DNA of 64,000 bases from Longimicrobiales bacterium (GCA_965249775.1 OZ252253.1:3232189-3296188), one strand, 5' to 3'. Shown: positions 2,997-50,210, counted from the stretch's first letter. Numbers and translations: made by a program. Notes: generated by a model from the letters alone, not told the origin.

Positions 2997-3029
2997 GAGC
3001 TGCCTCCCTCGGGTCAAACTGCTCTCGGC

Positions 3030-3100
3030 GTCTGAAGTATTCTGGGTGTCTGAAGCATTCTGGGTGCCTGAAGCATTCTGGGTGCCTGACGCACCCTCCT
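3030..3100. repeat. 18-bp direct tandem repeat, about 3.5 copies (gtctgaagYattctgggt), in the intergenic region between the recQ stop and the hydrolase start
   Basis: Copies at 3030-3047, 3048-3065, 3066-3083, plus a degenerate partial copy at 3084-3100. Each unit contains GAAgcaTTC. Confidence 0.85.
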
Positions 3101-3183
3101 CGCGATCGCCAATCAGACAAGCAGCTTGGGAAACGTCGTCACAGGACGCAAGAACGGGACGCGAGACAGGGTGTGGCGCCAGC

Positions 3184-4797: not shown

Positions 4798-4964
4798 GCC
4801 GAGGGGCGTGCCTGTCGGGTCGGGGGTGATCGGGGGCTCCAAGTCCGGGTGGCAGGTGCGAGCCCCAAGGTACACGAATGCAGGGGGCGAGGAGAGGGGT
4901 GGATGGGGCGCAGGAATCCATCCGAGTCGCGCATGGTCTGCGCAGGCCCCATGTTTCGGGACCC

Positions 4965-7301
4965 ATGGATACCAGAGCGCGCCTCGAGGCGGCCCTCGCC
5001 GACCGATACCGTGTGGACCGAGAAATCGGGTCGGGCGGCATGGCGGTCGTGTATCTCGCCGAAGATCTGAAGCATCGTCGGAAAGTCGCGATCAAAGTAC
5101 TCCGGCCCGAGCTGTCCGCCGCCATGGGCCCAGAGCGGTTCCTGCGCGAGATCGAGATCGCAGCCCAACTCAACCACCCCAACATCTTGGGACTCCACGA
5201 CTCCGGTGAGGCGGACGGTGTCCTCTATTTCGTGATGCCGTTCGTCGAGGGCGAGTCGCTTCGCGATCGGCTCGACCGAGTGGGCCAGCTGTCGCTCGAC
5301 GAGGCAGTGCAGATCACGAGCGAAGTCGCGAGCGCGCTAGGATATGCACATGAGCGCGGCGTCGTGCACCGGGACATCAAGCCCGAGAATATTCTCTTCC
5401 AGGCGGGCCACGCGCTCGTCTGTGACTTCGGCATCGCCAAGGCGGCGAGCGAGGCCCAGGGGCGGCTGACCGACACCGGACTCGCGGTCGGAACCCTCAA
5501 GTATATGAGTCCCGAGCAGGCCGTGGGCGAGGAGGAGATCGATGGGCGAACGGACCTCTACGCACTCGCCTGCGTCCTTCACCAGATGCTCTCGGGCGAG
5601 GTCCCCTTCGTCGGTCCCACGCCCCAGGCCGTGCTAAGCAAGAAGCTGATGGGTGCGGCGACCGATCTTTCCACCGGTCGGCCCGATGTCGCGCCGACCG
5701 TCCGCGATGTCATCTCCCGGGCCCTGGCGACGGCCCCGGAGGATCGCTTCGCCACCGCCGAGACATTCTCCAGCGCGCTTGTGCACGCGACGACCGAGTC
5801 CGCGGTTGCGGACGACGCGCGACGCCGTCGCCGTAACCGGATGTGGAGGACCGCCGCAATGCTCGCCGGCGTGTTGGCCTTCGGCGCCGGGGGCTGGTGG
5901 CTGACCGCGGTTGTGGGCGGACCGCCGATCGCGCGAATTGCATTGCTTCCGCTGACGAACACCCAGCGAGACACGGCGCAGGACTTTTTCGTGCAGGGGG
6001 TCCATGAGGATCTGGTCAGGGAGCTCACCTACGCGGGGATCCGTGTGATCAACTCCAACTCTGTGAGAGGCTATGCGGGGACGGACATGCGCATGCGCGA
6101 CATCGCCGCAGAGCTGAACGTGGATGGCGTCATCGTAAGCTCCGCGACCTTGGAGGGGGACCGCATCGAGGTGGAGTTGTCGCTCGTGGACGGGATCAGT
6201 GAGGAGTCACGTTGGATCGAGCGGTTCCAGGCGGACGTGAGCAACATCGTAACCCTCTACCACGACGTGACGCGGGCGATTGCCGCCGAGATCGAAACGG
6301 AGCTGAGCGGCGAGGCCCTCGCTCGTCTCGCCGAGTCCCTGCCGGTCGACCCACAGGTCTTCGAGGCACTCCTCCAGGCGCGGTTCCACTGGCAGAAGCT
6401 GACCGAAAAGGGGCTGAATACCGCGCTCGATTATTACGAGCTGGCGCTCTCGCGTGACTCCACTTCCGTGGAGGCCTGGATCGGAACCGCACGGGTCTGG
6501 AGTGTGCGCGCCCAGCAGGGGCTCGTGTCCGGAGAGGAGGCTACCCAGCGGGGCGCGGCAGCGATGGCACGTGCCGCGGCCCTGGACCCGACCGCGTCCC
6601 AGGATCCGGCGAGCCTCGCTGCTCAGCATACGTGGTACGAGTGGAACTGGGCCGAGGGAGAGATCGCCTTCCTGAGGGCCATCGAGAAGGATCCTACAGA
6701 CTCGGTGAACCGGGCCTACTACTCGCATCTGCTTTTCTACCTGGGTCGCATTGACGAGGCTCTGGAACAGGTCGAACTGGCGGCCGAGCTGGATCCCTTC
6801 AACTCCCTGGTCCAGGGACTCCACGCGCAGGACCTCATTTTTATGCACCGCTATGAGGCCGCCGAGGCGCTGCTGGTTCGTACGCTGGAGCGGGAGCCAG
6901 GGGCGCCCTACCCGTTGGCGACGCTGCGCACGGCCTACCACCTGATGGAGCGCCACGAAGAGGCGATCCAGGCGTGGAGGGAGTCGTACCGCTCTCTGGG
7001 GGACGCAGGAGCCCTGGACGCGCTCAACCGGGGGTTCGAGGAAAACGGATATCCTACCGCGCTCGAGTCCGTCGCAGAGCTGTTCATCGAGCGCCTGGAG
7101 ACGGGAGACGCAGCCCCGTGGCAAATCGGGACGTTATACACTCGGGCCGGGAGGGCCCCGGAAGCTTTATACTACCTCGAGTTGGCGTTCGAGGAGCTCG
7201 ATCCCAACATGCCTTACCTCAGTGTTGATCCGATCTTCGACTTTCTGCGGGACGAGCCTCGCTTCGAGAGCCTTCTGGACGGACTAGGCCTTCCACGGTA
7301 G
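4965..7301 (+). CDS. Serine/threonine protein kinase with TM segment, periplasmic TolB-N-like domain and C-terminal TPR-like region
   Basis: Kinase subdomains [35 protein letters not shown] segment at [21 protein letters not shown]. The C-terminal half is TPR-like. The start is placed at the ATG at 4965 ([15 protein letters not shown]). Confidence 0.8.
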
Positions 7302-7334
7302 AGCGCCACCGACTCCCCCCGGTCCCGCCCCCTA

Positions 7335-8018
7335 TCACTCCGGCTTCCGGGCAATCCAGATGAGGTGCCGAGCGCCCTTCCCCCGGTGCGCCCGCACGGG
7401 AACCTCGTCTACCGCGAAACCAGCTCCAACGAGGCGCTTGGTGAAAGCACGGTCGGAACCCGCCGACCATACCCCGAGGACACCTTTGGGCCGGAGTGCC
7501 TGGTAGGACACATCGAGCCCGGCCTTCGAGTAGAGCCAGTCATTACTCTTATGGGTCAATCCCTCCGGACCGTTGTCGACGTCCAACAAGATGGCATCGA
7601 ACGACCGCGCTTCCGCCCTCAGCATGACGGAGACGTCAATCTCGTTGACCGTGACGCGCTCATCGCGGAGAGGATGGCCGGCGTGCTCGCCGAGCGGCCC
7701 CCGGTTCCACTCGACCACTTCAGGCACCAACTCGGCCACCACCACTTCGGCGTCGTGCCCGAGGTGGCGTAGCGCGGAAGCCAGCGTGAAGCCCATGCCC
7801 AGGCCACCGATCAGCACGCGGGGCCGCTCGCAACCGGCGACCTCGGTGCACGCGATCTCAGCCAGCGCGTCTGCGGACCCGTGGGTTCGGGTGCTCATGA
7901 GGTCCTGACCGTCCACGATCTTGATCACGAAGTCTTCACCGTGCTCGTAAAGACCCAACTCGCCACCGCCGTCCGGTATCGGTGCGGTATCGAGCAGCCT
8001 CATTCGGGCTTTAGACAT
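7335..8018 (-). CDS. Spermidine-synthase-like (polyamine aminopropyltransferase family) methyltransferase-fold protein
   Basis: 227 aa with a Rossmann-like motif VLIGGLGMGFT and spermine/spermidine-synthase-like overall pattern. Confidence 0.5.
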   Translation of the reverse strand: MSKARMRLLDTAPIPDGGGELGLYEHGEDFVIKIVDGQDLMSTRTHGSADALAEIACTEVAGCERPRVLIGGLGMGFTLASALRHLGHDAEVVVAELVPEVVEWNRGPLGEHAGHPLRDERVTVNEIDVSVMLRAEARSFDAILLDVDNGPEGLTHKSNDWLYSKAGLDVSYQALRPKGVLGVWSAGSDRAFTKRLVGAGFAVDEVPVRAHRGKGARHLIWIARKPE

Positions 8019-8212
8019 GTCAGGGCTGTTCCGGCTCGCGAGGACGGACGGCTTCGCTTTGCACGACCGCAGATAATAACCGGATTAGGGCAGCTTTTCC
8101 GGCTCCCTGGCCCGATGTCTGACCTTCCTCCATCTTCCTCGGAGGGCTCCGCTTCCGGGAGTCCTTTTCCTGGAGAGGTCCCTGGAGAGCCCTCGAACCA
8201 ACAGAGTGCCCA

Positions 8213-8878
8213 TTGGCGAACCTTAGCCCGTCTGAAACCCAAGGCTCCCTGAAGTGGCGTTCCTGGATTTCCCGCGTGTTGGTGGAGTCGGTGCTCGTAG
8301 TCGGGAGCATTCTCTTGGCCCTCGGGCTCGACCGGTGGGCCGAGGATCAGGATGATCAGGATCTCGCGACCCTCTCGCTCGTCATCTTCGAACGCGAGAT
8401 TCAGCAGAACCGCGTCCGTCTAGAGGACGTCGTGCTCTTCCACGCGGGGCTCCGGGACGTCTTGGCGAACATGGACGCCAGCGGCACGGCCATACCTGCG
8501 ACCACGATCCGTAACATGATGGACGGCTTTCAGCCCGCCATTCTGGTCAACACAGCGTGGGAAACGGCCGTCGCTACCGGCACCTTGGGGTACATGGACT
8601 ACGATGTCGTGGCGGGCCTCTCCCTCACCTACAACCTGCAGGAGCGTCTGGTCGCCCTGACCCAATCCGGTCTGAATAATCTCCTCCTGAGTGGCGTCTC
8701 GAGCGGGGAGACGGATCTGCTGGTCTACATGGCGAACCGCTATATGCGGGAGCTGACCGAAGCGGAGCAAGGGCTCCAGGGAGTCTACGACCTCGTGCTG
8801 GGTGTGGTCAGAGAAGCACTCGAAGAGCGTGGAGAGACCGTCGAGGCAGACACCACGGAGGTGTTGGGGCCCCCCTAG
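8213..8878 (+). CDS. Hypothetical membrane-anchored protein
   Basis: One N-terminal TM helix (VLVESVLVVGSILLALGL). GC-rich third-position codon usage. No recognisable family. Confidence 0.4.
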   Translation: MANLSPSETQGSLKWRSWISRVLVESVLVVGSILLALGLDRWAEDQDDQDLATLSLVIFEREIQQNRVRLEDVVLFHAGLRDVLANMDASGTAIPATTIRNMMDGFQPAILVNTAWETAVATGTLGYMDYDVVAGLSLTYNLQERLVALTQSGLNNLLLSGVSSGETDLLVYMANRYMRELTEAEQGLQGVYDLVLGVVREALEERGETVEADTTEVLGPP

Positions 8879-8888
8879 CGACTCCGCC

Positions 8889-9389
8889 TCACCTCAGCGG
8901 ATAACCCTCATCACCGGGCAACATTCCGTCGATACGAATGACCTTGAGGTCGGGGCCCACGTCCGATACGGGCACGAAGCCGATGGATCCGGGAATGACC
9001 GTGACCAGATCACGGAGCATGTCCGTGCTGAACACGATCTTGGGCCCGGACGCCACTTCGCTACGAAACATCTTGCCGATCCAGTACCGTCGGTAGCGGT
9101 CCTCGCTCATGCGGTAAATCTCGGTCAGAATCAGGTCGCGCTCGGGCGCGATCGCGGCCCTCACGAGGAGGGTGATCCGTGAGCGGTCAGGCCAATGTTG
9201 GCGCTCTGCCAAGAAGATGCTCCTGAGCTCGTCGAACGAGAGATTGTCATCGTCGATGGCGACCTGCGGATGAACCACAATAGCGACAGCCTCCCTCGCT
9301 TGTGCGTCGACCGTGGAAGCCATCGGACCCGCCGCCGCTGCTGTGACGAGAGCCAAGGCGGTTGCCCGCACCATGTTCACCCCCTTCAA
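8889..9389 (-). CDS. Small periplasmic PstS-like (phosphate-binding-protein-like) domain protein
   Basis: Signal peptide MVRATALALVTAAAAGPMASTVDAQA. The body resembles the N-terminal lobe of phosphate ABC substrate-binding proteins. The start overlaps the upstream porin stop by 4 nt, consistent with translational coupling. Confidence 0.45.
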   Translation of the reverse strand: MKGVNMVRATALALVTAAAAGPMASTVDAQAREAVAIVVHPQVAIDDDNLSFDELRSIFLAERQHWPDRSRITLLVRAAIAPERDLILTEIYRMSEDRYRRYWIGKMFRSEVASGPKIVFSTDMLRDLVTVIPGSIGFVPVSDVGPDLKVIRIDGMLPGDEGYPLR

Positions 9390-10453
9390 GAGCCCGCCAG
9401 GACGAAGCTGCCTTGCACATAGAGACTGTTCGTATTTTCCAGCCCTTCGAACTGCTCGTAACGATACTCCAACCGTAAGGCCAGAAAAGCCACAGGATCA
9501 TACCGAACGCCAACCACGAGCCCGTCGTAGTTCAAGGAAAGGGGAGCGAAAACGTCGTCGCCCGTCGGTACAATCACCTGCTCGACCCTGGCGTAGGGCT
9601 TCACCGATGAGAGCCCGCCCCACAGCCGGTACCCGAATTGGACGTAGTACGCATCCGAGCCGGGGAACGCTCCAGTGCCCGCCACGGGGTCATGGGTCAC
9701 GTGGGTGTATTCGGCGAGAATTTCGGGAGCGTCCCGGTCAAACGCCGCGTGCACCGAGTAGATCCGTTCGTTGACGTCACTCAGATCGGGTGCCTGCAGT
9801 CGGTCGCTGTAGAAGGTTGCGCCGACCTCGAGGCCCACGATCGAGATGGGCCGCGACTGCACCCGCGCCACCCATGCGGGGCGGTCGTTGTCATCGCCGG
9901 CGTCGCCGGCCCGAGCGATGTTGGCGCCCCTTCCGTTGCCGATCCCCACCTTATAGCCGAGCCCAAGCGACGTAGTAGGCAATCCGCCTTCGGCGATGAG
10001 GCCCACGAAATGAGTCGGGATGAAGCGGCTCCCGAACTTGATCATCTCCGGCCTCGCCACCGACGTCTGGAGCCAGGATCCATGGTGGAACGCCGCGTTC
10101 CAATAGCCCACCGGCGTGTGGAACCGGCCTGCAGCGATCTTGAATTCATCGGCGAAATCGAATCGCACCAGCGCACGCTCGACCTCGATCGAATAGCCGT
10201 CGTTCTTGGCGGTGAGCGAGACTTCACCGAAAAACGTGAACCGCTCGTCGAGGTCGGCAATCACGTGGCCGACCATCTGCCCCATTCGGAAGCCTTCGTC
10301 CTGATCCAACTCGGTGACCACGTAGTTGAAATCCCCGAAGCCCATAGCCCGGACGAAGGGATCGTCTGGCACCTGGCCGGCCAGGCCGACGGCAGGCGAA
10401 AAGACTGCGATGAAAAGGCCTAACCGGAATTCACGCATTGCTTGTCTCAGCAC
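9386..10453 (-). CDS. Outer-membrane beta-barrel porin-like protein (possibly a phosphate-selective OprO/P-like porin)
   Basis: Signal peptide, then alternating amphipathic beta-strand pattern across 355 aa. Co-operonic with the PstS-like gene. Confidence 0.5.
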   Translation of the reverse strand: MLRQAMREFRLGLFIAVFSPAVGLAGQVPDDPFVRAMGFGDFNYVVTELDQDEGFRMGQMVGHVIADLDERFTFFGEVSLTAKNDGYSIEVERALVRFDFADEFKIAAGRFHTPVGYWNAAFHHGSWLQTSVARPEMIKFGSRFIPTHFVGLIAEGGLPTTSLGLGYKVGIGNGRGANIARAGDAGDDNDRPAWVARVQSRPISIVGLEVGATFYSDRLQAPDLSDVNERIYSVHAAFDRDAPEILAEYTHVTHDPVAGTGAFPGSDAYYVQFGYRLWGGLSSVKPYARVEQVIVPTGDDVFAPLSLNYDGLVVGVRYDPVAFLALRLEYRYEQFEGLENTNSLYVQGSFVLAGS

Positions 10454-26407: not shown

Positions 26408-27058
26408 GTGGGCGCTCGAGGCCACCGTCGACAACCGCTAAAAGACGCTGCCACTGCTCAAGATTCCGGGCGCCGATTCCCTCAGAAACGAGCTCCAGAA
26501 TCGTCACGACCGGTGAGCCGAATTCGGAAAACTTTACCCTCCCCGGCACGATGTGCCCACCGAAAAATTTGCCGATTTTTGTCCCTTTGGGACCGGTCAA
26601 ATGACCTGAGTCCGCGGGTTCTCGACGTTCTGGCGGGATTGACCTTTCTGACCCAGAACGAGGTAGCCTCGGTCGGGTTCCAGACCAACTCCGTCTTCCG
26701 CGTGATGGACAACAACAGGGGCTATCGCCTCGGGAACGAACACGGCTTCACCGTATGGGGCGCGTACAATCTCTCGGATTGGGTGAGCGTCTCGATGCGG
26801 GGCCTCTTCGAGAAGTGGGGTGACGTGAAGGGAGACGACCCAGCAACGGACGGTACGAGCGATCCCAGCGCCGATTCCTTCCGTCAAGGAGGAGAGCGAG
26901 TCCAGATCCCCTTTGGTGTCAGCTTCTTCCTCAGAGAAGGACCCGCCGCGGGCCACCGGCTCTTGCTCGAGTGGTACTACGCGGTCCACGAGGACCTCAA
27001 CGGCCCTCAGCTATCGACCGATCGAACCCTCGTGGTCTCCTGGCAAACCTTTTTCTAG
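26408..27058 (+). pseudogene. Possible truncated outer-membrane beta-barrel (MetA-pathway/OmpW-like C-terminal half); start and integrity uncertain
   Basis: Only the C-terminal ~150 aa (LTFLTQNEVASVGFQTN...VVSWQTFF) looks OMP-like, with a terminal aromatic residue. No convincing signal peptide or start codon. Confidence 0.3.
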
Positions 27059-27168
27059 CTCCATCCTGACCGCGAAGGCTGGAGGGCCTGTCCCATGCCC
27101 TCGACGTGGTGGCGATAGGCACGCAGATTCCACACCCTTGGTTGAAACCAACCCCGTTCGAGCACCGT

Positions 27169-27204
27169 ACCATAAGGGGATTCCCGTCCATAAGGGGATT
27201 CCCG
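27169..27204. repeat. Exact 18-bp tandem duplication (ccataaggggattcccgt x2) 25-60 bp upstream of the repeat-protein gene
   Basis: Read directly from sequence. Each unit contains the palindrome GGGA-T-TCCC. It is a probable regulator-binding site pair. Confidence 0.8.
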
Positions 27205-27228
27205 TTCGGGGTTCAGAGAAGGGTGTAC

Positions 27229-28548
27229 ATGGCACAGTTCTGTGCGTTTGGCCGCTCGTTGTTGTGTGTGGCGGTGCTCGCCAGCCCCGCGTGGGCGCAG
27301 GATAGCGACCGGATTTGGGGTCGGCTCTACACAACGTCCGGCGACGTCCACGAGGGATTCATCCGCTGGGATCGGAACGAGGGCAGCTGGGTCGACGTTC
27401 TGGACGGCTCCAAGAAGATCCCTGATGAGAACTACCAGGCCTGGCTCGCAGCGAAGGGTGCCGACGGGCCGCCGCGCCGTTTTATCGATCTCCAGGGTTT
27501 CCGGATCTCGTGGGAGGAGGCCGACCCCGAGTTCTCACTTACCGCCACCTCCGGGGTCCGATTCGGGCACATCAGCTCTCTTCGCGTCATTGAGGCAGAC
27601 AGTGTTGAGCTGACGTTGCGCTCGGGTGAGCTCGTGGAGCTGGACCGTGGCTCCACGGACCTCGGGAGGTCCAATCGGGGGATCGTGGTGGACGTCCCAG
27701 GCCGGGCCGAAGTCGACTTGGACTGGGGCGATCTCGAGCGGATCGTCTTTTCCGCGGTGCCGGTGGGAGTTCGGGCCCGGGGTCACCGGCTTTACGGAAC
27801 TGCCGAGGACATCCAAGGGAATCGGTACACCGGTTACGTCTCCTGGGATCTGGACGAGATCTTCGAGTCCGACGAGCTGGACGGTGAAGAGATGGAGGGG
27901 GGTAGGAACCGGGAGATTCGGTTTGGGGAGATCGCCTCCATCGTGCGCATAGAAGGGGGGGCTCGGGTCGTGCTCGTCGATGGTGAGGAGTTGGACCTCA
28001 CGGACAACCGGGACGTTGATCGCAGAAATCGAGGAATTCAGATCTCGGATCCGGCGTTGGGCATGGTCGAGGTCGAGTGGAGTGAGCTCGAGATCTTGCG
28101 GTTCCACGAGGCGGACGCGGTCGTTGGCTACGACGCCTTCGATGGAGGGCATGTCCTGGTCGGCACCGTCGTGACACAGTCGGGAGAGGAGATCGACGGA
28201 CTGATTCGCTGGGATGCGGACGAAGCGGGCTCCTGGGAGTTTCTGAACGGTCGCGCGGACGACGTGGTCTTCACCATCGAGTTCGGCATGGTGAGCCGGA
28301 TCGTGCGCGGTGAGGTCTTCGGTGCCACCGTGACACTCCTGGACGGGAGGACCTTCGAGCTGGACAACTACGACGTCGTCTGGGACAACACCGACGATGT
28401 CAACTGGGACAATAGGGGCATCCTCGTCGCCCCGGAGGGCGCGAACAGCAGTGGCGGACCCGACTGGTCTCGTTGGCGTGTGGTCCCGTGGGACGAGTTC
28501 AAGGAGGCCCGCTTTCGCCACGACCAGACTATCGCCGGCGGAAACTAG
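27229..28548 (+). CDS. Secreted protein made of three ~90-aa internal repeats (unknown family)
   Basis: The start is the ATG at 27229 (MAQFCAFGRSLLCVAVLASPAWAQD, a signal peptide). Repeats begin at GRLYTTSGDVHEGFIRWD, GTAEDIQGNRYTGYVSWD and GTVVTQSGEEIDGLIRWD, each with a NRGI.V.....VEW..LE.I.F core. Confidence 0.6.
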   Translation: MAQFCAFGRSLLCVAVLASPAWAQDSDRIWGRLYTTSGDVHEGFIRWDRNEGSWVDVLDGSKKIPDENYQAWLAAKGADGPPRRFIDLQGFRISWEEADPEFSLTATSGVRFGHISSLRVIEADSVELTLRSGELVELDRGSTDLGRSNRGIVVDVPGRAEVDLDWGDLERIVFSAVPVGVRARGHRLYGTAEDIQGNRYTGYVSWDLDEIFESDELDGEEMEGGRNREIRFGEIASIVRIEGGARVVLVDGEELDLTDNRDVDRRNRGIQISDPALGMVEVEWSELEILRFHEADAVVGYDAFDGGHVLVGTVVTQSGEEIDGLIRWDADEAGSWEFLNGRADDVVFTIEFGMVSRIVRGEVFGATVTLLDGRTFELDNYDVVWDNTDDVNWDNRGILVAPEGANSSGGPDWSRWRVVPWDEFKEARFRHDQTIAGGN

Positions 28549-28553
28549 GGCTC

Positions 28554-30899
28554 ATGGGTCACATGCGGACGATCCGGTGGTTCGGAGTCGTGTCTCGTGG
28601 GTGGTTCGGAGTCTTGTGTCTCGGGTTGTTCGGCCTCGGGGCCGAACGGGCGGCCGGGCAGGAAGCGTCGCCTGACTCGGCTGGCCAGGTCGCCCCGGAC
28701 ACATACGTCGATCCGGTGGCACGCACGCTGTTCGAGGCGGCCCAGACGAACTGGCGATCCGTGGACGAATCGATTGTCCGGTACACCGCCCTTATCCAGC
28801 AGCGGATCGCGGCGGCGCTCCGGACCCCGCTCAAGGATCGGATCCTCTACCGGAACGAGACCGCCGTCCGTGCTTTCTGGGATCAGGACTACGACGCGGT
28901 CGTCCAGGTTCTGGGGACGCACTCCCAGTATCCGGGTCGATCGATCGCGGTCCGCGAGGGTGACCTGGACTGGTTGGACGACCTCCCGTTCGACGAACCG
29001 TTCGAGCCGGGCGGCGATCGCCTCCTCTTCGGCCTGGACACCAGCGACGGGGACGACAGCGCCTTCGAAGAGAACGAGGGGTTTTGGGTCGTACACCCGT
29101 TGGCGAACGGATCCGACTCCGTCTACCGCTACGAGAGCGGGGATACCCTTTCGTTGTCCCTCCCGGATGGGCGCGTGCTGCGGACCATCCAATTGGACGT
29201 TCTTCCGCGTGAAGCCGATGTCCACCGTATCAGTGGTACCCTTTGGATCGAGCCCGAGTCCGGCGCGCTCGTACGAGCCGTCTATCGACTGAGTAGGCAG
29301 TTCGATGCAATGCGAGATGTGGCGGAGCTCCAGGAAGAGGAGGAGAGGGGATCATTCAGGTACGTGCCCGGCTTGTTCAAGCCGTGGACGTTCGACCTGA
29401 CGATGGTGGCGGTCGAGTATAGCCTCTGGAACTTCGAGGTCTGGCTCCCTCGGAGCATGCGGATCGAGGGGGAGGTCGCCGCAGGCATCCTCAAGATGCC
29501 GGTATCGATGGACGTTTCCTATCGGATGGAGTCCGTCACCACCCAGTCCGACCTGGCCCGGGAGGGAACGGTGCTGCCGGCCGGGCTCGTGGAACGACAC
29601 TTCGAGACCCGCGCCGAGGCCATGGCCTTCATCGCCCAGCTGTTGTCCGAGCAGGACGGGATCGACTACGAGCAGGCCTCCCGAAGCGAAGAGTTCGCGT
29701 CAGGTCGACAGTCGCTGATGATCGTCCCTCAGGAACGCAGCCTGGTGGACACCAGTCCCCATCTTCCGCCTCCGATCTGGGAAGACGCTGCGGGTTTCCC
29801 GTCCGACGACCAGCTGGAGGACTACTTCAATACTCTTGCCGCTCTTCCGGCCCCGACCATCCAAGGCGTTCCCTGGGAGGCCAACTGGGGTTGGAATCGG
29901 CCTGATCTGCTCCGCTACAACCGGGTGGAGGGACCGGCTTTGGGAGGACGCTTCGATGCCAGCATCGGCGGACCCTACACGTTCGAAGGGATCGGGTACT
30001 TCGGGTTCGCGGATCTCGAGCCGAAAGCACGGGTGAGCATCGAGCGGTCGACCGTTCGGCGCCGACTGCGCGTCGGCGTGTACCGCGAGCTCACTGCCAC
30101 CGATCCCAAGGGCCGGTACCTGGGATTCGGCAACTCGGTGTACGCGCTTCTCTTCGGCCGAGACGAAGGCGAATACTACCGGGCCACGGGCATGGACTTC
30201 ACGTGGCGTCCACCCGTAGGGGCCAGGGAGTCGTTCGAGTTCAGGGCCTACGCAGAGCGTCAGGCGTCGGTCCCGACGGAGTCCAGCTTTGCGCTGTTTC
30301 GCGCCTTCAATGGCAGCTGGGAATTCCGACCCAACATCGACGCCGACGAGGTAGAGGAGTTCGGGGCTGAGCTACGGCTCTCGCCCCGGCGGGGTGGGGA
30401 GCCGTCCCGCGCCCAGTTCGGACTCGACCTGTACGGACAGGCAGCCCGCTGGAGAACTACTGGAGGGAGCGAAGGAACGAACTATGGGCGGGCCAGCGCC
30501 GTGCTGTGGACGGCGATACCCCTGGTCCCGCAACGCTGGCGCTTGGGCCTCGAGGCAGGGGTGGGAACCACCTTTGGCGACGCACCCCTCCAGCGCCAAT
30601 GGTTCCTGGGTGGCGCCCGCACGCTTCGGGGGTACCCTGCTTCGTCGGCCGGGGGATCGTCGGTTGCTCGGGCCCGGGCGGAAGTGGCACGAACCTTCTA
30701 CGACATCGGCTCAGTGAGCTTCTTTGGGGACATCGGTTGGGCGGGCCTTCGGGGCAACTACACCGGGGACGATCTGCTCTACGCAATCGGGGTCGGCGGG
30801 AGCGTGCTCGACGGTCTGTTCCGCATGGACCTGTCCCACGGTCTCAAGGGCCCGCAGAAGCAGTTCCGGGTCGACTTGTACCTCGACGCTCTGCTGTAA
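28554..30899 (+). CDS. Omp85/BamA-TamA-like outer-membrane protein with a large N-terminal periplasmic region
   Basis: Signal peptide (MGHMRTIRWFGVVSRGWFGVLCLGLFGLGA). The C-terminal ~300 aa carry Omp85 barrel hallmarks (LGGARTLRGY, FGDIGWAG, alternating beta pattern). Starts 6 nt after the upstream gene. Confidence 0.55.
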   Translation: MGHMRTIRWFGVVSRGWFGVLCLGLFGLGAERAAGQEASPDSAGQVAPDTYVDPVARTLFEAAQTNWRSVDESIVRYTALIQQRIAAALRTPLKDRILYRNETAVRAFWDQDYDAVVQVLGTHSQYPGRSIAVREGDLDWLDDLPFDEPFEPGGDRLLFGLDTSDGDDSAFEENEGFWVVHPLANGSDSVYRYESGDTLSLSLPDGRVLRTIQLDVLPREADVHRISGTLWIEPESGALVRAVYRLSRQFDAMRDVAELQEEEERGSFRYVPGLFKPWTFDLTMVAVEYSLWNFEVWLPRSMRIEGEVAAGILKMPVSMDVSYRMESVTTQSDLAREGTVLPAGLVERHFETRAEAMAFIAQLLSEQDGIDYEQASRSEEFASGRQSLMIVPQERSLVDTSPHLPPPIWEDAAGFPSDDQLEDYFNTLAALPAPTIQGVPWEANWGWNRPDLLRYNRVEGPALGGRFDASIGGPYTFEGIGYFGFADLEPKARVSIERSTVRRRLRVGVYRELTATDPKGRYLGFGNSVYALLFGRDEGEYYRATGMDFTWRPPVGARESFEFRAYAERQASVPTESSFALFRAFNGSWEFRPNIDADEVEEFGAELRLSPRRGGEPSRAQFGLDLYGQAARWRTTGGSEGTNYGRASAVLWTAIPLVPQRWRLGLEAGVGTTFGDAPLQRQWFLGGARTLRGYPASSAGGSSVARARAEVARTFYDIGSVSFFGDIGWAGLRGNYTGDDLLYAIGVGGSVLDGLFRMDLSHGLKGPQKQFRVDLYLDALL

Positions 30900-30958: not shown

Positions 30959-31025
30959 CGTTTGACTCCCCTCCCGCCTGATTGTACCATATCACTATAA
31001 CACTAGTACATTACAACACTGGTGC
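30959..31025 (+). promoter_or_regulatory. AT-rich promoter/operator with an imperfect ~21-bp direct repeat (GTACcATatCACTATAACACT / GTACATTACAACACT) around an ACTAGT palindrome
   Basis: A local AT-rich island in a 66%-GC context, immediately upstream of the GntR gene. A TTGACT -35-like hexamer sits at 30962. Confidence 0.4.
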
Positions 31026-31053
31026 CATCGCAGCCCATCGAGGACCGGGACCC

Positions 31054-31428
31054 GTGGAATTCTCCATCGACACCAAGAGCGGCGTCCCCTTCTACCGGCA
31101 AATCATCGAGCAGGTGAAGTACGGCATCTCGGGGGGGCTACTCTCTCCCGGGGACCGGCTTCCCACGGTCCGGCAGCTCGCCGCCGACCTGTCGGTCAAC
31201 CCGAACACCGTCATCCGCGCCTATCGGGAGATGGAGCTCGGAGATGTGGTCGATACGCAACAGGGGTCCGGGACCTACGTGGCCAACCACATGCCGGAGA
31301 TCGGCGAGCTCGAGAAGCGTCGGAAGCTGGACCAGGTGCTCACCGAGTTCCTGGCTCGCGCGCACGGGTACGGGTTCACCCTGGTCGAGGTCCTCGACGG
31401 TTTACGGGAACGCAAGGAGCAGTCATGA
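31054..31428 (+). CDS. GntR-family (YhcF-like, short) transcriptional regulator
   Basis: Winged-HTH motif GDRLPTVRQLAADLSVNPNTVIRAYREMELGDVV. The start is placed at the GTG at 31054 (VEFSIDTKSGVPFYRQI) with GAGGA upstream. A TTG at 30982 is in frame but unlikely. Confidence 0.7.
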   Translation: MEFSIDTKSGVPFYRQIIEQVKYGISGGLLSPGDRLPTVRQLAADLSVNPNTVIRAYREMELGDVVDTQQGSGTYVANHMPEIGELEKRRKLDQVLTEFLARAHGYGFTLVEVLDGLRERKEQS

Positions 31429-32576
31429 ACGGCATAGAATCCAAACGCACAGAGCGCGGGAAGTCGCGAACGGGGATCTCTTTCGAGAGGTTCTCCACGT
31501 CGAGCCGCGCCGACTTCCGCTTTGCGCCGCTCAACTTCCTGCTGCTGGTGGGGTTCTACGTGGTGGGCCTGACCGTCCACATCAACGTCTACGAATTCTC
31601 CGCCGACGCGGTATACCTCACGCTGGGCGCGGCTCTGGTACTCTCTTTCCTGCTTCGTTTTACCCAGGTGTGGGAGGCCGTCGTCGTCCTGGGCACGGCC
31701 ACGTGTCTTGGGATGTACATCGAGTGGAGTCCTGGCTCCGGGGTCTTGGAGCTGCGTTCCGACAGCACGGTCTTGCTATTGACGACCGTCGTGGCGGTGC
31801 TCGTGTCTCCCTCGGTTCAGATGGCCTTCCAGTGGGAGCGAGCAGTGGTGCTGCGCCTCGGCAAGTTCCGCGGCCTGCGCGAGTCGGGCCTGTTCGTGAT
31901 CCTCCCGGTGATCGACAAGGTGGCGCAGTTCGTGGACCAGCGGATCCGCGTCACCGACTTCAGCGCCGAGACGACCCTCACGAACGACACGGTCCCGGTG
32001 AGCGTGGACGCCATAGCCCTCTGGATGGTGTGGGACGCGGAGAAATCCATCCTCGAGGTCGAGCACTTCAACGACGCCGTGATCCTCTCCGCCCAGACGG
32101 CGCTCCGAAACGCGATCGGAAAGAACGACCTGGGCCAGCTCCTGTCGGAGCGGGACCGCCTGGGGAGCGAGATCCAGAAGGTGCTCGACGCGAAGACCAA
32201 CCGCTGGGGCATCACCATAGAATCCGTGGAGATCCGTGACATCATCATTCCCCAGGCCCTCGAAGACGCAATGTCCCGACAGGCCCAAGCCGAGCGGGAG
32301 CGCCAGAGCCGCATCATCCTCGGCACGGCGGAGACGGAGATCGCCGAGAAGTTCGCCGAGGCCTCCCAGCACTACGTGGGTAACGAGGTGGCTCTGCACC
32401 TCAGGGCCATGAACATGGTCTACGAGGGGCTTCGGCAAAAAGGCTCGATGGTGATCGTGCCGTCCTCGGCGGTGGAGACGATGGGGTTGGGGGCGCTGGG
32501 TGGGCTGACGTCGTTCGGGCGTAATGTCGTGCCGCAGGAGGAGGAAGCGGCGGCGTTGGAGGCAGAACCTGAATAG
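31425..32576 (+). CDS. SPFH/band-7 (stomatin/prohibitin-like) membrane protein with extra N-terminal TM domain
   Basis: ATGA overlap with the GntR stop. SPFH core VILPVIDKV...RVTDFSAETTLTNDTVPVSVDAIALWMV...AQAERE, ending in a coiled-coil tail. Confidence 0.8.
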   Translation: MNGIESKRTERGKSRTGISFERFSTSSRADFRFAPLNFLLLVGFYVVGLTVHINVYEFSADAVYLTLGAALVLSFLLRFTQVWEAVVVLGTATCLGMYIEWSPGSGVLELRSDSTVLLLTTVVAVLVSPSVQMAFQWERAVVLRLGKFRGLRESGLFVILPVIDKVAQFVDQRIRVTDFSAETTLTNDTVPVSVDAIALWMVWDAEKSILEVEHFNDAVILSAQTALRNAIGKNDLGQLLSERDRLGSEIQKVLDAKTNRWGITIESVEIRDIIIPQALEDAMSRQAQAERERQSRIILGTAETEIAEKFAEASQHYVGNEVALHLRAMNMVYEGLRQKGSMVIVPSSAVETMGLGALGGLTSFGRNVVPQEEEAAALEAEPE

Positions 32577-33244: not shown

Positions 33245-34927
33245 ATGAAAAGTAGGTCCCTGCTCGTAGCTCTCTTCGTCAGCCTTTTGCCCGGCCCGTT
33301 GGCGGGTCAGGATGCCGTAGCGTTGCAACAGGCCTGCGACGCTGGCGACATGCTGAGCTGCAACACCCTCGGACTCATGTACGGGGCCGGGAAAGATGTC
33401 ACCTGGGATGGCGGGCGTGCCGCTAGCCTCTTTCAGCGAGCGTGTGACGGGGGATTGATGCTGGGTTGCACCCACCTAGGGGCTCTGTATCAGAATGGCG
33501 TCGGCGTCACTCAGGACCTTACCAGCGCGGTCTTCCTGTACGAGCGAGCCTGCGACGGCGGCGATATGATGGGCTGCGCCACCCTCGGGGTCAGCTATGA
33601 GCGGGGCGAAGGTGTCACACAGGACGCTGTTCGCGCCGTGAGCCTCTACGAGCGAGCCTGCGGCGGCCGCGAGATGCTGGGCTGCACCAACCTGGGGAGT
33701 ATGTATAGGACGGGCAGGGGCGTCACCCAGGATCTCGGTGCCGCGGCCAGCCTCTATTGGCTGGCTTGCGACGGTGGAGTGATGCCGAGCTGCCTCAACC
33801 TCGCCGTCAGTTATGAGCGTGGCGATGGCGTCGCTCAGGACGTCAGCATCGCCGTGATCCTCTACCAGCGAGCCTGTGAGTCCGGAGTGACCTTGGCCTG
33901 CGACCGGATTGGGGTCACGTACGAGCCGCCTGAGGCAGATGTCGCTTCGGCTGACGGTTTTGCCAGGGCCGGCTGGGTCGTGGATACGGAGACCAGAGAC
34001 CCGCTCGACGAGGCGATCGTGGACATACCGGAGCTCGGGATTCGGGTGATCACCGACGCGACAGGTCGTGTCGAGTTCCCAAACCTACCGACCGGGCGGC
34101 ATCGCATAAGGGTAGAGCGGGTCAATTATCAGGCCATGGAGGGTGACCTGGACGTTCCGGAGGACCGAGAATTCCTGCTTGCCTTGGACCTGACCCTCAT
34201 AGGCGACCCGGACGCTCCGGGGCGGATCGTCGGTCGGGTCTTGGAGGGCGGCAGAGAATATGGGGTTTCGTCTGTGGACATCACCGTACTGACCTCTACA
34301 CCGGTCAACACATTCAGTGATCCACAAGGACGGTTCAGTCTCATGGACGTGGAGCCTGGGTTGGTGGAGGTCCGCTTCGGGCGGCTGGGCTACGCCCCCC
34401 GCAGGGCCACAGTGATCGTGCAACCTGATAGAACGGTGGAAATCGCCGCCTCGATGTCCGCCCGCCCCATCGAGCTCGAGCCGATCGCGGTGGTGGTCCG
34501 CCCCCGCAATCTCGAGCAGAACGGATTCTACCGGAGGGCCCTTACTAGTGGGGGCAGCCAGCTCACTCGGAAGGACCTCGACGCCATCGACCCGATAGAG
34601 GTAGGCCACGTTTTTCGGCGGCTTCCGGGCGTGAGGGTGGAAGGCGGGCAGATCATGGGGCGGAGGACCGGGTTCGGAGACATATGTCGACTTCGAATTT
34701 TCTTGGACGGGGTGCCGGTGGGCGGCCTTATTCCCGGCGTCCCAGTAGAGGACCCCGCCGACCCCAACAACGGGGACATCGACCCCCCCCCAGTTCAGGT
34801 CGGCTGGGATTTCAACTCCATCCCCCCCGATTTCCTGGAGGCGATAGAGGTCTACCAGGGACTGAACACGCCCATCCAGTACGGTCCGGCTTGCGGCGTG
34901 GTACTCTTCTGGTCGAGGGGTAACTGA
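33245..34927 (+). CDS. Secreted Sel1/Hcp-like Cys-paired repeat + carboxypeptidase-regulatory-like (x2) + TonB-dependent-receptor plug domain protein, with no beta-barrel
   Basis: Signal peptide. Six ACDGGxMxGC...GxGVxQD Sel1-like repeats. Two CarbopepD_reg-like beta-sandwiches (GRVEFPNLPTGRHRIRVERVNYQ; GRIVGRVLEGG...GRFSLMDVEPG). A plug-like end ...GFGDICRLRIFLDGVP...IEVYQGLNTPIQYGPACGVVLFWSR, then a stop. Confidence 0.7.
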   Translation: MKSRSLLVALFVSLLPGPLAGQDAVALQQACDAGDMLSCNTLGLMYGAGKDVTWDGGRAASLFQRACDGGLMLGCTHLGALYQNGVGVTQDLTSAVFLYERACDGGDMMGCATLGVSYERGEGVTQDAVRAVSLYERACGGREMLGCTNLGSMYRTGRGVTQDLGAAASLYWLACDGGVMPSCLNLAVSYERGDGVAQDVSIAVILYQRACESGVTLACDRIGVTYEPPEADVASADGFARAGWVVDTETRDPLDEAIVDIPELGIRVITDATGRVEFPNLPTGRHRIRVERVNYQAMEGDLDVPEDREFLLALDLTLIGDPDAPGRIVGRVLEGGREYGVSSVDITVLTSTPVNTFSDPQGRFSLMDVEPGLVEVRFGRLGYAPRRATVIVQPDRTVEIAASMSARPIELEPIAVVVRPRNLEQNGFYRRALTSGGSQLTRKDLDAIDPIEVGHVFRRLPGVRVEGGQIMGRRTGFGDICRLRIFLDGVPVGGLIPGVPVEDPADPNNGDIDPPPVQVGWDFNSIPPDFLEAIEVYQGLNTPIQYGPACGVVLFWSRGN

Positions 34928-34935
34928 GCCGTGAG

Positions 34936-36546
34936 ATGAAAAATAAGTCCCTGCTCGTAGCTCTCTTCATCGGCCTGTTGCCTGGTCCGTTGGCCGGTCA
35001 GGATGCCGTAGCGTTGAACCAGCAGGCCTGCGACGCCGGCGATTTGATGAGCTGCAACGTGCTCGGGCTCATGTACGGGGCCGGGGCTGACGTCCCTCAG
35101 GATGGGGCGCGTGCCGCCAGCCTCTTCCAGCGAGCGTGTGACGGGGGACTGATGCTGGGTTGCACCCACCTCGGGCTCCTTTATCAGAATGGCGCAGGCG
35201 TCACTCGGGACCTTGCCAACGCGGTTTTCCTCTACGAGCGAGCCTGCGACGGCGGCGATATGCTGGGCTGCGCCAGCCTCGGGGTCAGCTACGAGCTGGG
35301 CGACGGCGTCACACAGGACCCTGCCCGCGCCGTGAGCCTCTATGAGCGGGCCTGCGGCGGCGGCGAGATGATGGGCTGCACCAACCTCGGGAGCATGTAT
35401 AGGACGGGCAGAGGCGTCACCCAGGATCTCGGTGCCGCGACCAGCCTCTACTGGGTGGCTTGTGACGGCGGAGTGATGCCGAGCTGCTTGAACCTCGCGG
35501 TCAGTTATGAGCGTGGCGAAGGCGTCACTCAGGATGTCGCCATCGCCGTGGTCCTCTACCAGCGAGCCTGTGAGTCCGGAGTGACCTTGGCCTGCGACCG
35601 AATCGGGGTCACGTATGAGCCGCCTGAAGCAGATGTCGCTTCGGCAGACGGATTTGGCAGGGCCGGCTGGGTCGTGGATACCGAGACCAGAGACCCGCTC
35701 GACGAGGCGATCGTGGATGTGCCAGAGCTCGGGATTCGGGTGATCACCGACGCGACAGGTCGTGTCGAGTTTCCAGACCTCCCGGAGGGGCGACATCGCG
35801 TAAGGGTAGAGCGGGTCAATTATCAGGCCATGGAGGGTGACCTGGACGTTCCGGAGGACCGAGAATTCCTGCTTGCTTTGGACCGGACCGTCATAGGCGA
35901 CCCGGACGCTCCGGGGCGGATCGTCGGTCGGGTCTTGGAGGGCGGCAGGGAATATGGGGTTTCGTCTGTGGACATCACCGTACTGACCTCTACACCGGTC
36001 AACGCACTCAGTGATCCACAAGGACGGTTCAGTCTCACGGACGTGGAGCCTGGATTGGTGGAGGTTCGCTTCGAGCGGCTGGGCTACGCCGCCCGTAGAG
36101 CCACGGTGATCGTACAACCTGATAGAACGGTGGAAATCGCCGCCTCGATGTCCGCCCGCCCCATCGAGCTCGAGCCGATCGCGGTGGTGGTCCGCCCCCG
36201 CAATCTCGAGCAGAACGGATTCTACCAGAGGGCCCTTGTCTCTGGGGGCAGCCGGCTCACTCGGGATGACCTCGACGACATCCACCCGATCTTCATATCC
36301 GACGTTTTTCGGCGCCTTCCGGGCGTGAGGGTGGAAGACGGGCAGGTCATTGGGCGGTCGACCGGGTTCGGGGACATATGTCAACTTCGAATTTTCTTGG
36401 ACGGCCTGCCGATGGAGGGGTGGGATTTCGATTCGATCCCCCCGGAGTTCCTAGAGGCGATGGAGGTGTACCAAGGATTGGCCACTCCCATCCAGTACGG
36501 TCCGGCTTGTGGCGTGGTACTCTTCTGGTCGAGGACGGGTGGCTGA
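34936..36546 (+). CDS. Tandem paralog of 33245-34927 (same Sel1 + CarbopepD_reg + plug architecture)
   Basis: About 85-90% identical at protein level. It lacks the 24-aa Pro-rich insertion of the first copy. Starts 8 nt after the first gene. Confidence 0.7.
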   Translation: MKNKSLLVALFIGLLPGPLAGQDAVALNQQACDAGDLMSCNVLGLMYGAGADVPQDGARAASLFQRACDGGLMLGCTHLGLLYQNGAGVTRDLANAVFLYERACDGGDMLGCASLGVSYELGDGVTQDPARAVSLYERACGGGEMMGCTNLGSMYRTGRGVTQDLGAATSLYWVACDGGVMPSCLNLAVSYERGEGVTQDVAIAVVLYQRACESGVTLACDRIGVTYEPPEADVASADGFGRAGWVVDTETRDPLDEAIVDVPELGIRVITDATGRVEFPDLPEGRHRVRVERVNYQAMEGDLDVPEDREFLLALDRTVIGDPDAPGRIVGRVLEGGREYGVSSVDITVLTSTPVNALSDPQGRFSLTDVEPGLVEVRFERLGYAARRATVIVQPDRTVEIAASMSARPIELEPIAVVVRPRNLEQNGFYQRALVSGGSRLTRDDLDDIHPIFISDVFRRLPGVRVEDGQVIGRSTGFGDICQLRIFLDGLPMEGWDFDSIPPEFLEAMEVYQGLATPIQYGPACGVVLFWSRTGG

Positions 36547-48741: not shown

Positions 48742-50187
48742 ATGAGCTATCGTCTCATCCCAGCCATCGCTCTCGCGCTCCTGCTCCCGGCCTACGCCGG
48801 CGCCCAGCAGGAGGAATCGTACGACTATTGGCGATTTCAACGGGACATGGTCCGGCATGGCCAGCAGGCCATCCTGCAGTGCAACGGCCTGTTCACGTCC
48901 AACCGGACGCTCGAGCAGGTCTTCGACGAGGAGTTGGCGTTTCTTCCGGAGCCGGTTGGCACGGCTCAAGGCGGGGACTACATCGTCGATTGGGACCTCA
49001 AGGCGGTGGTCATCGGCGGGCCGGGAGGCGTTCCGCCGATCAGCGCGGCGTTCCGCGAGGGGATCGGCTGTGTAATCATGGCGCCGGATCAGAGCTTGGA
49101 GGACATCGAGAGTCTGCCGAAGCTCGATGCACCGCCTCTGCCAGGCGACCCAGCCACCATCCCGTGGCCGAACGGAGATCTGATCGAGGACCGCCCGCTC
49201 GCACCAGGCGTGAACGCCGCTGCCCTGGAGGCCGCGTCCGACTGGGCCTTCGAACGGCCGACCGGGCAGGTCACTCTCAGCCTTCTGGTGGTGCACAAGG
49301 GCCAGATCATTCATGAGCGCTACCGCCCTGGCTTCGACATGACGACCAGGACGCGGACTTGGTCCACGGCCAAGAGCATCGCCGCTACGCTGATCGGCAT
49401 GATGGTCGACGACGGACAGATGGCGCTCGACAAGCCCCTCGGGCTCGACTGGTACCCGAGGGCCCGCTCACCCGAAACCGATCCACGCAACGAGATCACG
49501 CTGCGCCACGTGCTCAACATGTCGAGTGGTCTGAATACGGTGGACAATTCGGGTCAGGAGTACGCAACCGGCTCGGGCATGGCGTATTGGGCCGGCGCGA
49601 GCTCGATCCGAGGCGCTCGGAGCCGGGCACTCATTCGGGAGCCGGGCACCTTCTGGGACTACGAGAACTACGACACGCTGCTCGGTGTGTACGCCATGAA
49701 GCTGGCCATTGGCGACGCCCAGGCGTACCTGAGGTTCCCGCGCAAGAGGCTGCTCGACAAGATCGGCATGCGCAACACGCTGTTGAGCACGGATCGGTTC
49801 GGAGACTTCATCCTGAGCAGCCAGGTCTATACGAACGCGCGCGACCTGGCCCGCTTCGGCCTGCTCTACCTGAACAACGGCGTCTGGAATGGGGAGCGGC
49901 TCATCTCGGAGGATTGGATCGACTTCGTTCGCACGCCAGCTCCCGCTACGGCGACGACCGGGAACCAATACGGAGGTCAGTGGTGGCTCCCCGGTGATAA
50001 TGCCCAAGGTGTGCCGTCGACCGCCTACTCGACGTCCGGCAACCGTGGCCAATATGCCATCGTGGTTCCCTCCCACGACCTCGTCATCGTACGCAGAGGC
50101 TTGGATTTCGGGCGGCAGGGATTCAGCCGATGGGGCCTGGTGAGAGAGGTGCTCAAGGCGATCCCGGAGGTATCGGCGGACCGGTAA
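48742..50187 (+). CDS. Secreted beta-lactamase-fold serine hydrolase (class C / esterase / D-aminopeptidase-like)
   Basis: Start at the ATG at 48742 (MSYRLIPAIALALLLPAYAGAQQ). SxxK motif TWSTAKS. A -10-like tatgataat lies upstream. Confidence 0.7.
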   Translation: MSYRLIPAIALALLLPAYAGAQQEESYDYWRFQRDMVRHGQQAILQCNGLFTSNRTLEQVFDEELAFLPEPVGTAQGGDYIVDWDLKAVVIGGPGGVPPISAAFREGIGCVIMAPDQSLEDIESLPKLDAPPLPGDPATIPWPNGDLIEDRPLAPGVNAAALEAASDWAFERPTGQVTLSLLVVHKGQIIHERYRPGFDMTTRTRTWSTAKSIAATLIGMMVDDGQMALDKPLGLDWYPRARSPETDPRNEITLRHVLNMSSGLNTVDNSGQEYATGSGMAYWAGASSIRGARSRALIREPGTFWDYENYDTLLGVYAMKLAIGDAQAYLRFPRKRLLDKIGMRNTLLSTDRFGDFILSSQVYTNARDLARFGLLYLNNGVWNGERLISEDWIDFVRTPAPATATTGNQYGGQWWLPGDNAQGVPSTAYSTSGNRGQYAIVVPSHDLVIVRRGLDFGRQGFSRWGLVREVLKAIPEVSADR

Positions 50188-50210
50188 ACAGGAAGACCGG
50201 TAAACAGGAA
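50179..50210. repeat. Exact 16-bp tandem repeat (gaccggtaaacaggaa x2); the first copy contains the stop codon of the beta-lactamase-fold gene
   Basis: Read directly from sequence. A degenerate similar motif (gacggttaacagaa) lies at about 50676. Confidence 0.8.

Follow-up and report, generated by a model that had tools for sequence, protein, structure and literature searches.

In this study we describe two adjacent genes, designated p1 and p2, in a 64,000-nucleotide stretch of DNA (subsequently termed the window) from a Longimicrobiales bacterium (GCA_965249775.1 OZ252253.1:3232189-3296188). Judged from their arrangement in related genomes, p1 and p2 form a conserved, translationally coupled operon of the Gemmatimonadota. 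The C-terminal 330 residues of p2 are an Omp85-superfamily β-barrel, and in the p2 family a conserved domain of about 400 residues appears to stand in place of the POTRA array, as no POTRA domain is detectable by sequence models. Upstream of p1 lies a promoter of the extracytoplasmic function (ECF) sigma factor class. The p1-p2 pair proves to be a genuine and conserved module within the Omp85 superfamily that has gone essentially undescribed; it is not a new kind of system. Omp85 proteins are at the core of outer-membrane biogenesis and type V secretion, and to our knowledge nearly all that is known of their substrate recognition rests on POTRA domains.

Both genes are located on the plus strand. 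p1 extends from the ATG at 27229 to the TAG at 28548 and encodes a secreted or periplasmic protein of 439 amino acids (aa) with a Sec-type signal peptide (aa 1–23, 27229-27297), which reads MAQFCAFGRSLLCVAVLASPAWA followed by QD, i.e. ...ASPAWA/QD. After a gap of 5 nt, p2 (28554-30899, ATG at 28554) encodes a protein of 781 aa, which consists of a signal peptide (aa 1–35, 28554-28658, ...ERAAG/QEA), an N-terminal domain (aa 36–450, 28659-29903) and the C-terminal barrel (aa 451–781, 29904-30899). A first-pass annotation, made from the sequence alone, had recognized both genes, but placed the start of p1 at 27230 and gave 782 aa for p2 and 6 nt for the gap.

The same annotation had assigned the C-terminus of p2 to the Omp85 type on account of the motifs LGGARTLRGY and FGDIGWAG. 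Both are present, at aa 685–694 (30606-30635) and aa 724–731 (30723-30746), and include the L6-loop motif TLRGY (aa 690–694) and the FGDIG motif (aa 724–728), respectively. An AlphaFold2 (AF2) model of p2, built from 56 fairly close homologues, exhibits a closed barrel at aa 451–781 with predicted local distance difference test (pLDDT) values mostly between 75 and 96, in which DSSP counts 15–16 strands. When this model was compared with the PDB using Foldseek, the best 50 of 112 matches with E ≤ 0.001 were all BamA, TamA, Sam50 or Toc75, the BamA proteins being those of Deinococcus, Fusobacterium, E. coli and Neisseria; the best match had an E-value of 2.3e-9, and a TM-score of 0.68 was reached on barrel-only TamA. 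A family profile made from 116 diverse representatives of p2 detected TamA of P. aeruginosa (8us4, E = 5e-8) and BamA of F. nucleatum (E = 3.5e-7), and in the profile alignment the RGY and F.D.GW (FxDxG) motifs of the family are aligned with VRGY and FVDQG of TamA. Residues R692, G693, F724, D726, G728 and W729 of p2 are kept in at least 90% of the 116 representatives.

Profile models gave a graded picture. When 59 diverse members of the p2 family were scanned singly against Pfam, the Omp85 model was matched by 54 of them at E ≤ 0.1 (best E = 3.7e-8), the ShlB/FhaC barrel model weakly by 36 and DUF5686 by 20, and the members P0380 and P0349 exceeded the curated cut-offs. The corresponding NCBIfam matches of the family, to Toc75, BamA and TamA, were all weak. 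The window p2 alone scored 15.4 bits with Omp85 (PF01103, cut-off 24) and also remained below the cut-off of ShlB (PF03865); among all Pfam and NCBIfam models none reached its curated cut-off, the best being DUF5686 with 18.9 bits versus 39.2. Thus, of the Omp85, POTRA and ShlB models to which the first-pass annotation had pointed, the first and the last find matches within the family, those to ShlB being weak, whereas the window protein stays below cut-off and the POTRA models match none of the 59 members. Its statement that neither protein is recognizable as TpsA or TpsB agrees with the Pfam and NCBIfam scans, which returned nothing above cut-off for either. Since structure, family profile and motif conservation agree, the assignment of the p2 barrel to Omp85 is correct.

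The p2 family is sizeable and almost entirely unannotated. A word-indexed search returned 657 homologues, of which nearly all named ones are hypothetical proteins of Gemmatimonadota; an exhaustive search yielded 1,435 clusters at 50% identity, and a collection holding one genome per species contained 172 relatives. The exact p2 protein had no record in the contig index, and no description of the family was found in the literature on DUF5686, on Omp85 in Gemmatimonadetes or on Omp85 proteins lacking POTRA domains.

The N-terminal domain of p2 is acidic (pI 4.4), belongs to no known family and is at least as well conserved as the barrel: mean identity of close homologues to the window p2 is 76% for aa 50–330 and 65% for the barrel. 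None of the 59 diverse members matched a POTRA model of Pfam at E ≤ 0.1, and no match of this domain to solved proteins was obtained, the profile matches in the PDB being confined to the barrel. In the AF2 model pLDDT drops below 50 at aa 66–349, rendering the model unusable there. The domain matches none of the WD40, patatin, metallophosphatase or POTRA types. It is also unrelated to the repeats of p1 (hhalign probability 2%). A LolA-like fold, suspected from the shape of a motif, was dropped as no tool result supported it. In one member of the p2 family, positions 110–173 of the DUF5686 profile were matched in the N-terminal part, below cut-off, and at the level of sequence this suggests that DUF5686 proteins share the two-part layout of p2.

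These data bear on the idea that p2 is simply the highly diverged housekeeping BamA/TamA orthologue of its lineage, with p1 as a lineage-specific, lipoprotein-like partner. The best structural and profile matches are indeed BamA and TamA, and one distant member of the family bears the NCBI name 'BamA/TamA family outer membrane protein'. However, the POTRA models match 0 of 59 members, the window p2 scores 15.4 bits, below the Omp85 cut-off of 24, p1 has neither a lipobox nor TamB/AsmA-like features, and an essential housekeeping gene would not be expected to rely on an ECF (stress) promoter alone. We consider this explanation very unlikely.

To address the pairing of the two genes we used 82 loci: two from metagenome contigs and 80 from the collection with one genome per species, almost all of the latter carrying a Longimicrobiales or Gemmatimonadota label. 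A p1 homologue is located directly upstream of p2 in 80 of the 81 testable loci; L035 is devoid of p1, and L073, which lacks upstream sequence, was not tallied. With the first available start codon of p2, a 4-nt overlap with the stop codon of p1 is possible in 58 of 76 loci. The two genes are accordingly conserved together in relatives, in agreement with the candidate operon of the first-pass annotation. Moreover, three divergent clusters of proteins (1,169–1,237 aa; 37%, 32% and 26% identity to p1) represent p1::p2 fusions, in which p1 is followed by the p2 N-terminal domain and then by the barrel; the linker is about 25 residues long. In P0242, the fusion that was inspected closely, the p2 part starts at the mature N-terminus, and hence the p2 signal peptide is gone. 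Three samples yielded one of the fusions in independent assemblies, and gene calling on a 35-kb contig gives it as one gene. Six distant p2 homologues stand alone without p1 (L035, L083, L084, L086-L088); several of them stem from farmland or otherwise unlabelled metagenomes, and one is part of a family placed in the Gemmatimonadales by NCBI. Synteny and fusion tie p1 functionally to p2, and the distribution suggests that p1 is a dedicated partner, which was added in one order, the Longimicrobiales, and occasionally became fused to the barrel.

Clustering of the neighbouring genes over the 82 loci revealed no third conserved component and nothing else that is universally linked. Genes for MscS, arginase-family and Ser/Thr kinase-PD40 proteins were considered as parts of the module and rejected, as they are lineage-specific neighbours present in about 30–36 loci. 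A few loci deviate in other respects. Four metagenome-assembled genomes labelled 'Gammaproteobacteria bacterium' (L043, L046, L050, L081) carry p1-p2 with p2 identities of 57–59%, amid the Gemmatimonadota matches, which probably reflects an error in binning or labelling rather than horizontal transfer. In L079 a second p1-like gene (8363-9832, 31% identity) lies downstream of p2 in addition to the p1 match upstream, and therefore the partner gene is duplicated in this locus. In L087 (3025-4275) and L088 (3648-4931) a DUF2157 gene on the same strand is found directly upstream of the stand-alone p2 homologue, i.e. in the position of p1, with the ECF-type promoter lying between both genes.

Alignment of the regions upstream of p1 in the relatives revealed a common promoter motif. 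In the window it spans 27144-27169 on the plus strand and comprises the -35 element GAAAC(C) at 27144-27149 and the -10 element CGTA at 27166-27169, with a spacer of 17 nt between GAAAC and CGTA; this is the sole match to GAAAC-N15-18-CGTA in the window. Of 77 loci, 62 have the exact motif in the 300 nt preceding p1, where 0.011 matches are expected per region, and the spacer measures exactly 17 nt in 55 of these 62. When one mismatch is allowed, 75 of the 77 loci have the motif. It also precedes the gene in 7/7 additional loci, namely the fused gene of L085 and six stand-alone homologues. The known ECF promoter class tgaAAC-N16/17-CGTA/CGTC is that of sigma-W/M/X (PMC5758882). By its -35 and -10 elements, its spacing and its conservation, the p1-p2 promoter is of the ECF sigma class, and transcription of both genes would presumably depend on an ECF sigma factor.

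A candidate for the cognate sigma factor is encoded in L084. There, a minus-strand cluster at 4645-5850 codes for an ECF sigma factor (Sigma70_r2/r4_2, 189 aa), a putative anti-sigma factor of 210 aa and HEAT/YfiO-like proteins; the sigma/anti-sigma genes are divergent from the stand-alone p2 homologue (6001-8502), and GAAACC-N16-CGTA is found in the shared intergenic region. This adjacency occurs in one of the six stand-alone loci. Tblastn searches with the L084 sigma and anti-sigma proteins found nothing in the window or in any of the loci.

The p1 protein consists of three repeats, as the first-pass annotation had stated along with its signal peptide, but the length of about 90 aa given there for the repeats is too short. 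Self-alignment delimits units of about 105–160 aa with an alignable core of about 100 aa: repeat 1 comprises aa 25–185 (27301-27783), including an insertion of roughly 40 aa, repeat 2 aa 186–305 (27784-28143) and repeat 3 aa 306–439 (28144-28545). Their common pattern is G..G...G...WD.DE ... FG ... L.DG..L.L ... NRGI ... W..F. All named proteins among the 591 homologues of p1 are hypothetical proteins of Gemmatimonadota. Scans of p1 against Pfam and NCBIfam returned nothing above cut-off, including no match to the two-partner secretion (TPS) domain (Haemagg_act) or to DUF490/AsmA, and the sequence has no lipobox and no TamB/AsmA-like features. AF2 yielded a confident, compact all-β model (pLDDT 88, predicted TM-score 0.86), in which the repeats form small β-barrels and no β-helix is present. 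Foldseek found nothing significant for this model in the PDB, and the overall fold of p1, as modelled, matches no solved structure. Mature p1 is Cys-free and acidic (pI 4.4). An alignment of 45 sequences contains 41 invariant residues, and the architecture is constant among the p1 proteins examined.

What these two proteins do together can be explained in more than one way. The reading we prefer, at about even chances, is that of an ECF-controlled envelope module in which p1 serves as periplasmic accessory subunit. p1 and p2 would be made as one transcription unit from the ECF-sigma-dependent promoter at 27144-27169, the sigma factor being encoded elsewhere. p2 would reside in the outer membrane, its C-terminal third forming a 16-strand-type Omp85 barrel that keeps the RGY latch of L6 and the FxDxG strand motif, while its N-terminal approximately 400 residues would provide a conserved periplasmic domain replacing the usual POTRA array. 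p1 would be exported by the Sec pathway and then dock on p2 as an accessory or receptor subunit, in a role that may be likened to that of BamB-E for BamA or of the WD40 domain in WD40-Omp85 fusions. Once the ECF regulon is switched on, the module would handle envelope or outer-membrane proteins. Sigma dependence, the periplasmic location of p1, the physical complex of p1 and p2 and the function in biogenesis are what we infer.

Several observations argue for an accessory role of p1. The fusions place p1 N-terminally, which is where Omp85 proteins carry periplasmic modules; the 45 aligned p1 sequences share one architecture and 41 invariant residues; and as p2 persists elsewhere with the promoter and without p1, p1 looks like an add-on rather than a substrate that justifies p2. 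Periplasmic N-terminal domains other than POTRA, including the BamB-like WD40 fusion, are already known (PMC4104836), which further favours an accessory over a cargo. Four points weigh against this view. First, the order of the fusions, passenger, periplasmic domain and barrel, is also that of type Vd secretion. Second, p1 diverges faster than p2 (identities of 30–82% versus 52–85%), which would also suit a surface-exposed protein. Third, given the low AF2 confidence, the N-terminal domain of p2 may harbor a cryptic POTRA-like fold. Fourth, an ECF sigma gene accompanies the module in only one of six stand-alone loci (not in L083 and L086-L088), and none was found in the window or the remaining loci.

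The first two of these points keep a transporter/cargo reading in play, which was the one proposed in the first-pass annotation: p2 would act as an Omp85-type translocase dedicated to p1, bringing it to the surface or into the medium, type Vb-like in the case of the gene pair and type Vd-like in the fused forms. The tight, conserved adjacency of p1 and p2 is compatible with it, and so are the fusions, whose order of p1, N-terminal domain and barrel resembles the passenger-POTRA-barrel order of PlpD (PMC4104836); the fusions as such fit a cargo or an accessory subunit alike. That mature p1 is Cys-free, acidic and faster evolving than p2, and that 36 of 59 p2 family members match the ShlB/FhaC barrel model, if weakly, would likewise suit an exported protein and its transporter. 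However, p1 lacks a match to the TPS domain (Haemagg_act) in the Pfam scan and is modelled as small β-barrels instead of a β-helix, p2 has no detectable POTRA domain to receive a cargo, the three-repeat architecture is invariant among the p1 proteins examined, and p2 homologues without p1 exist, which makes p1 look like an add-on. Taking both sides into account, we regard export of p1 through p2 as possible but doubtful. More far-reaching, and unlikely in our estimation, is an undescribed envelope machine, i.e. an Omp85 translocase or insertase whose substrate handling would rely on the new domain of about 400 aa and on p1 instead of POTRA domains; in its boldest form, p1 would be exported via p2, constituting a new ECF-switched, type V-like class without TPS or POTRA domains.

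Between the promoter and p1 lies an exact tandem duplication of the 18-bp unit CCATAAGGGGATTCCCGT (plus strand, 27170-27205; copies at 27170-27187 and 27188-27205), which the first-pass annotation had correctly reported and had taken for a duplicated transcription factor site. The unit has only these two matches in the window, even when three mismatches are allowed, and two or more matches occurred in 0 of 100 shuffles; Tandem Repeats Finder also detects the repeat. About 30 other short tandem repeats are present in the window, which is a caveat although the 18-bp repeat is beyond chance as a match. The repeat begins at the base directly after the -10 element and hence takes in the predicted transcription start together with the initial ~30 nt of the leader. 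Close relatives possess a single, diverged copy (L001, CCGTATATAGGTACTCCGGTTCGG; L006, CCGTACCTACTAGGAGATTCCGGTGTCGG), and the palindrome GGGATTCCC is kept neither in L001 (...TAGGTACTCCGG...) nor in L006 (...GGAGATTCCGG...). As the closest relatives are single-copy and diverged and lack the palindrome, the duplication is strain-specific, and the element conserved in this region is the ECF-type promoter upstream of it. In RNA the two copies can pair to form a 10-bp stem, and a folding energy of -27.9 kcal/mol (z -2.7) was obtained for the 74-nt leader; an Rfam scan of the leader gave no match. This stem could influence the stability of the leader. In the reading preferred here, the repeat would have arisen recently, by slippage that duplicated the start of the leader, adding at most a 5' stem-loop to the mRNA.

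A comparable duplication of 24 bp (28576-28633, 2.4 copies, 85% matches) is located in the signal-peptide coding region of p2, where it encodes WFGVVSRG / WFGVLCLG / LFGL; the closest homologue, P0001, has one WFG..LCLG unit. Both duplications together point to frequent slippage duplications in the source genome. Further tandem repeats with units of 16–24 bp are found at 3032-3093 (3.4 copies), 50179-50210 (2 exact copies) and 54467-54558 (3.8 copies). The first and the last of these lie near the 5' ends of minus-strand open reading frames (ORFs) for an Abhydrolase_10 protein (1548-3230) and an S15 peptidase (52751-54640), respectively, similar to the duplication in the p2 signal peptide.

Alternatively, the 18-bp copies could serve as tandem operators for a palindrome-binding regulator, possibly the GntR-family protein encoded downstream. 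An exact duplication between promoter and start codon, each copy of which holds the inverted repeat GGGA-T-TCCC, would be in line with this idea. Yet the arms of the inverted repeat measure only 4 bp, the site is single-copy and diverged in the closest relatives, where GGGATTCCC is not kept, and many other small tandem duplications exist, including the one in the p2 signal peptide. The GntR-family ORF (30982-31428, plus strand; GntR Pfam E = 3e-14) does follow p2 on the same strand, at a distance of 82 nt, as the first-pass annotation had noted, but the link to p1-p2 that it had left open is not supported by synteny: GntR and Band7 genes lie beside the pair in 0 of 82 loci, and the closest relative is similar at the DNA level only up to 30914, short of the GntR gene. 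We consider an operator function of the repeat highly improbable.

The GntR-family gene is short, and its last 4 nt (31425-31428) are shared with the start of an SPFH/Band7 gene (region 30962-32576). Its best NCBIfam matches are the Rv1152 and PmtR families, and we take the protein to be YtrA-like. The gene has a sigma-70-like promoter match of its own (TTGACT-17-TACCAT, 30962-30990) and is preceded by an AT-rich stretch with the short inverted arms TGTAC...GTACA (about 30983-31010). GntR and Band7 give the impression of an autoregulated unit of two genes that stands apart from p1-p2.

Two further neighbours deserve mention. Upstream of p1, the ORF at 26408-27058 ends with ...VVSWQTFF, resembling an outer-membrane β-signal. 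Its homology (26624-27055) covers only the C-terminal half (aa 138–281, 83% identity) of a 281-aa protein of L002, and the ORF therefore resembles what is left of a gene that lost its 5' part at a rearrangement breakpoint. In both L001 and L002, the gene for the 281-aa protein follows giant fn3/DUF11 (CLIPPER) proteins. Further downstream, tandem paralogues (33245-34927 and 34936-36546) of 536–560 aa exhibit an unusual architecture of Sel1 repeats, two CarboxypepD_reg domains and a TonB-receptor Plug; being that short, they lack the usual barrel of TonB-dependent receptors.

The p2 family thus offers a large set of Omp85-superfamily proteins in which the POTRA array would be replaced by a different conserved domain. 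In the window, the regulatory element is the promoter beside the 18-bp repeat rather than the eye-catching repeat itself. Being conserved, this ECF-type promoter provides an experimental handle for finding the inducing signal and the sigma factor, and it puts the module in the context of envelope stress, in a phylum with almost no envelope genetics.

How does the module compare with known systems? With type Vb secretion systems (FhaC/FHA, ShlB/ShlA, CdiB/CdiA), p1-p2 shares the adjacency of a secreted protein and an Omp85-superfamily barrel, and the fused variants mimic the order of type Vd (PlpD). In contrast to both types, p1 has no TPS-domain match and no β-helix and comprises only 439 aa, and p2 lacks a detectable POTRA domain; the partner gene precedes the barrel gene, and the two are translationally coupled. 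TamA and BamA (P. aeruginosa TamA 8us4; BamA of E. coli and D. radiodurans) are the closest solved relatives, with best E-values of 5e-8 by profile and 2e-9 by structure; on barrel-only chains p2 reaches TM-scores of 0.62–0.68, and the L6 and strand motifs align. However, sequence identity amounts to 12–14%, POTRA domains are not detectable in p2, and p1 is not a partner of the TamB/AsmA-like or BamB-E-like kind. The partner in the TamA-TamB translocation and assembly module is an inner-membrane-anchored protein, whereas p1 has 439 aa, a cleavable signal peptide and a compact globular model.

Proteins with DUF5686 are found mainly in Bacteroidota. The weak matches of the p2 family to this model (PF18939; 20 of 59 members, best E = 1.5e-6) lie where the barrel begins (profile positions 333–475) and score 19–22 bits, under the cut-off of 39.2. 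DUF5686 is uncharacterized, the sole mention found in the literature being a single occurrence in a proteome study. The promoter agrees with the sigma-W/M/X class (PMC5758882) in the cores of both elements, -35 and -10, and in their fixed spacing, but differs in that its host belongs to the Gemmatimonadota and that a cognate sigma gene was not found near the module in the window.

The nearest parallels are the Omp85/TpsB subfamilies with N-terminal domains other than POTRA, i.e. WD40-Omp85, metallophosphatase-Omp85, patatin-Omp85/PlpD and noNterm (Heinz and Lithgow 2014, PMC4104836). p2 differs from them in its N-terminal domain of about 400 aa and in the unmatched fold of its partner p1, and the window barrel scores below the Pfam cut-offs for Omp85 and ShlB. 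Like them, it combines a C-terminal barrel bearing RGY (L6) and FxDxG with a large non-POTRA N-terminal domain, and, like the BamB-like WD40 domain of WD40-Omp85, p1 is sometimes fused to its N-terminus.

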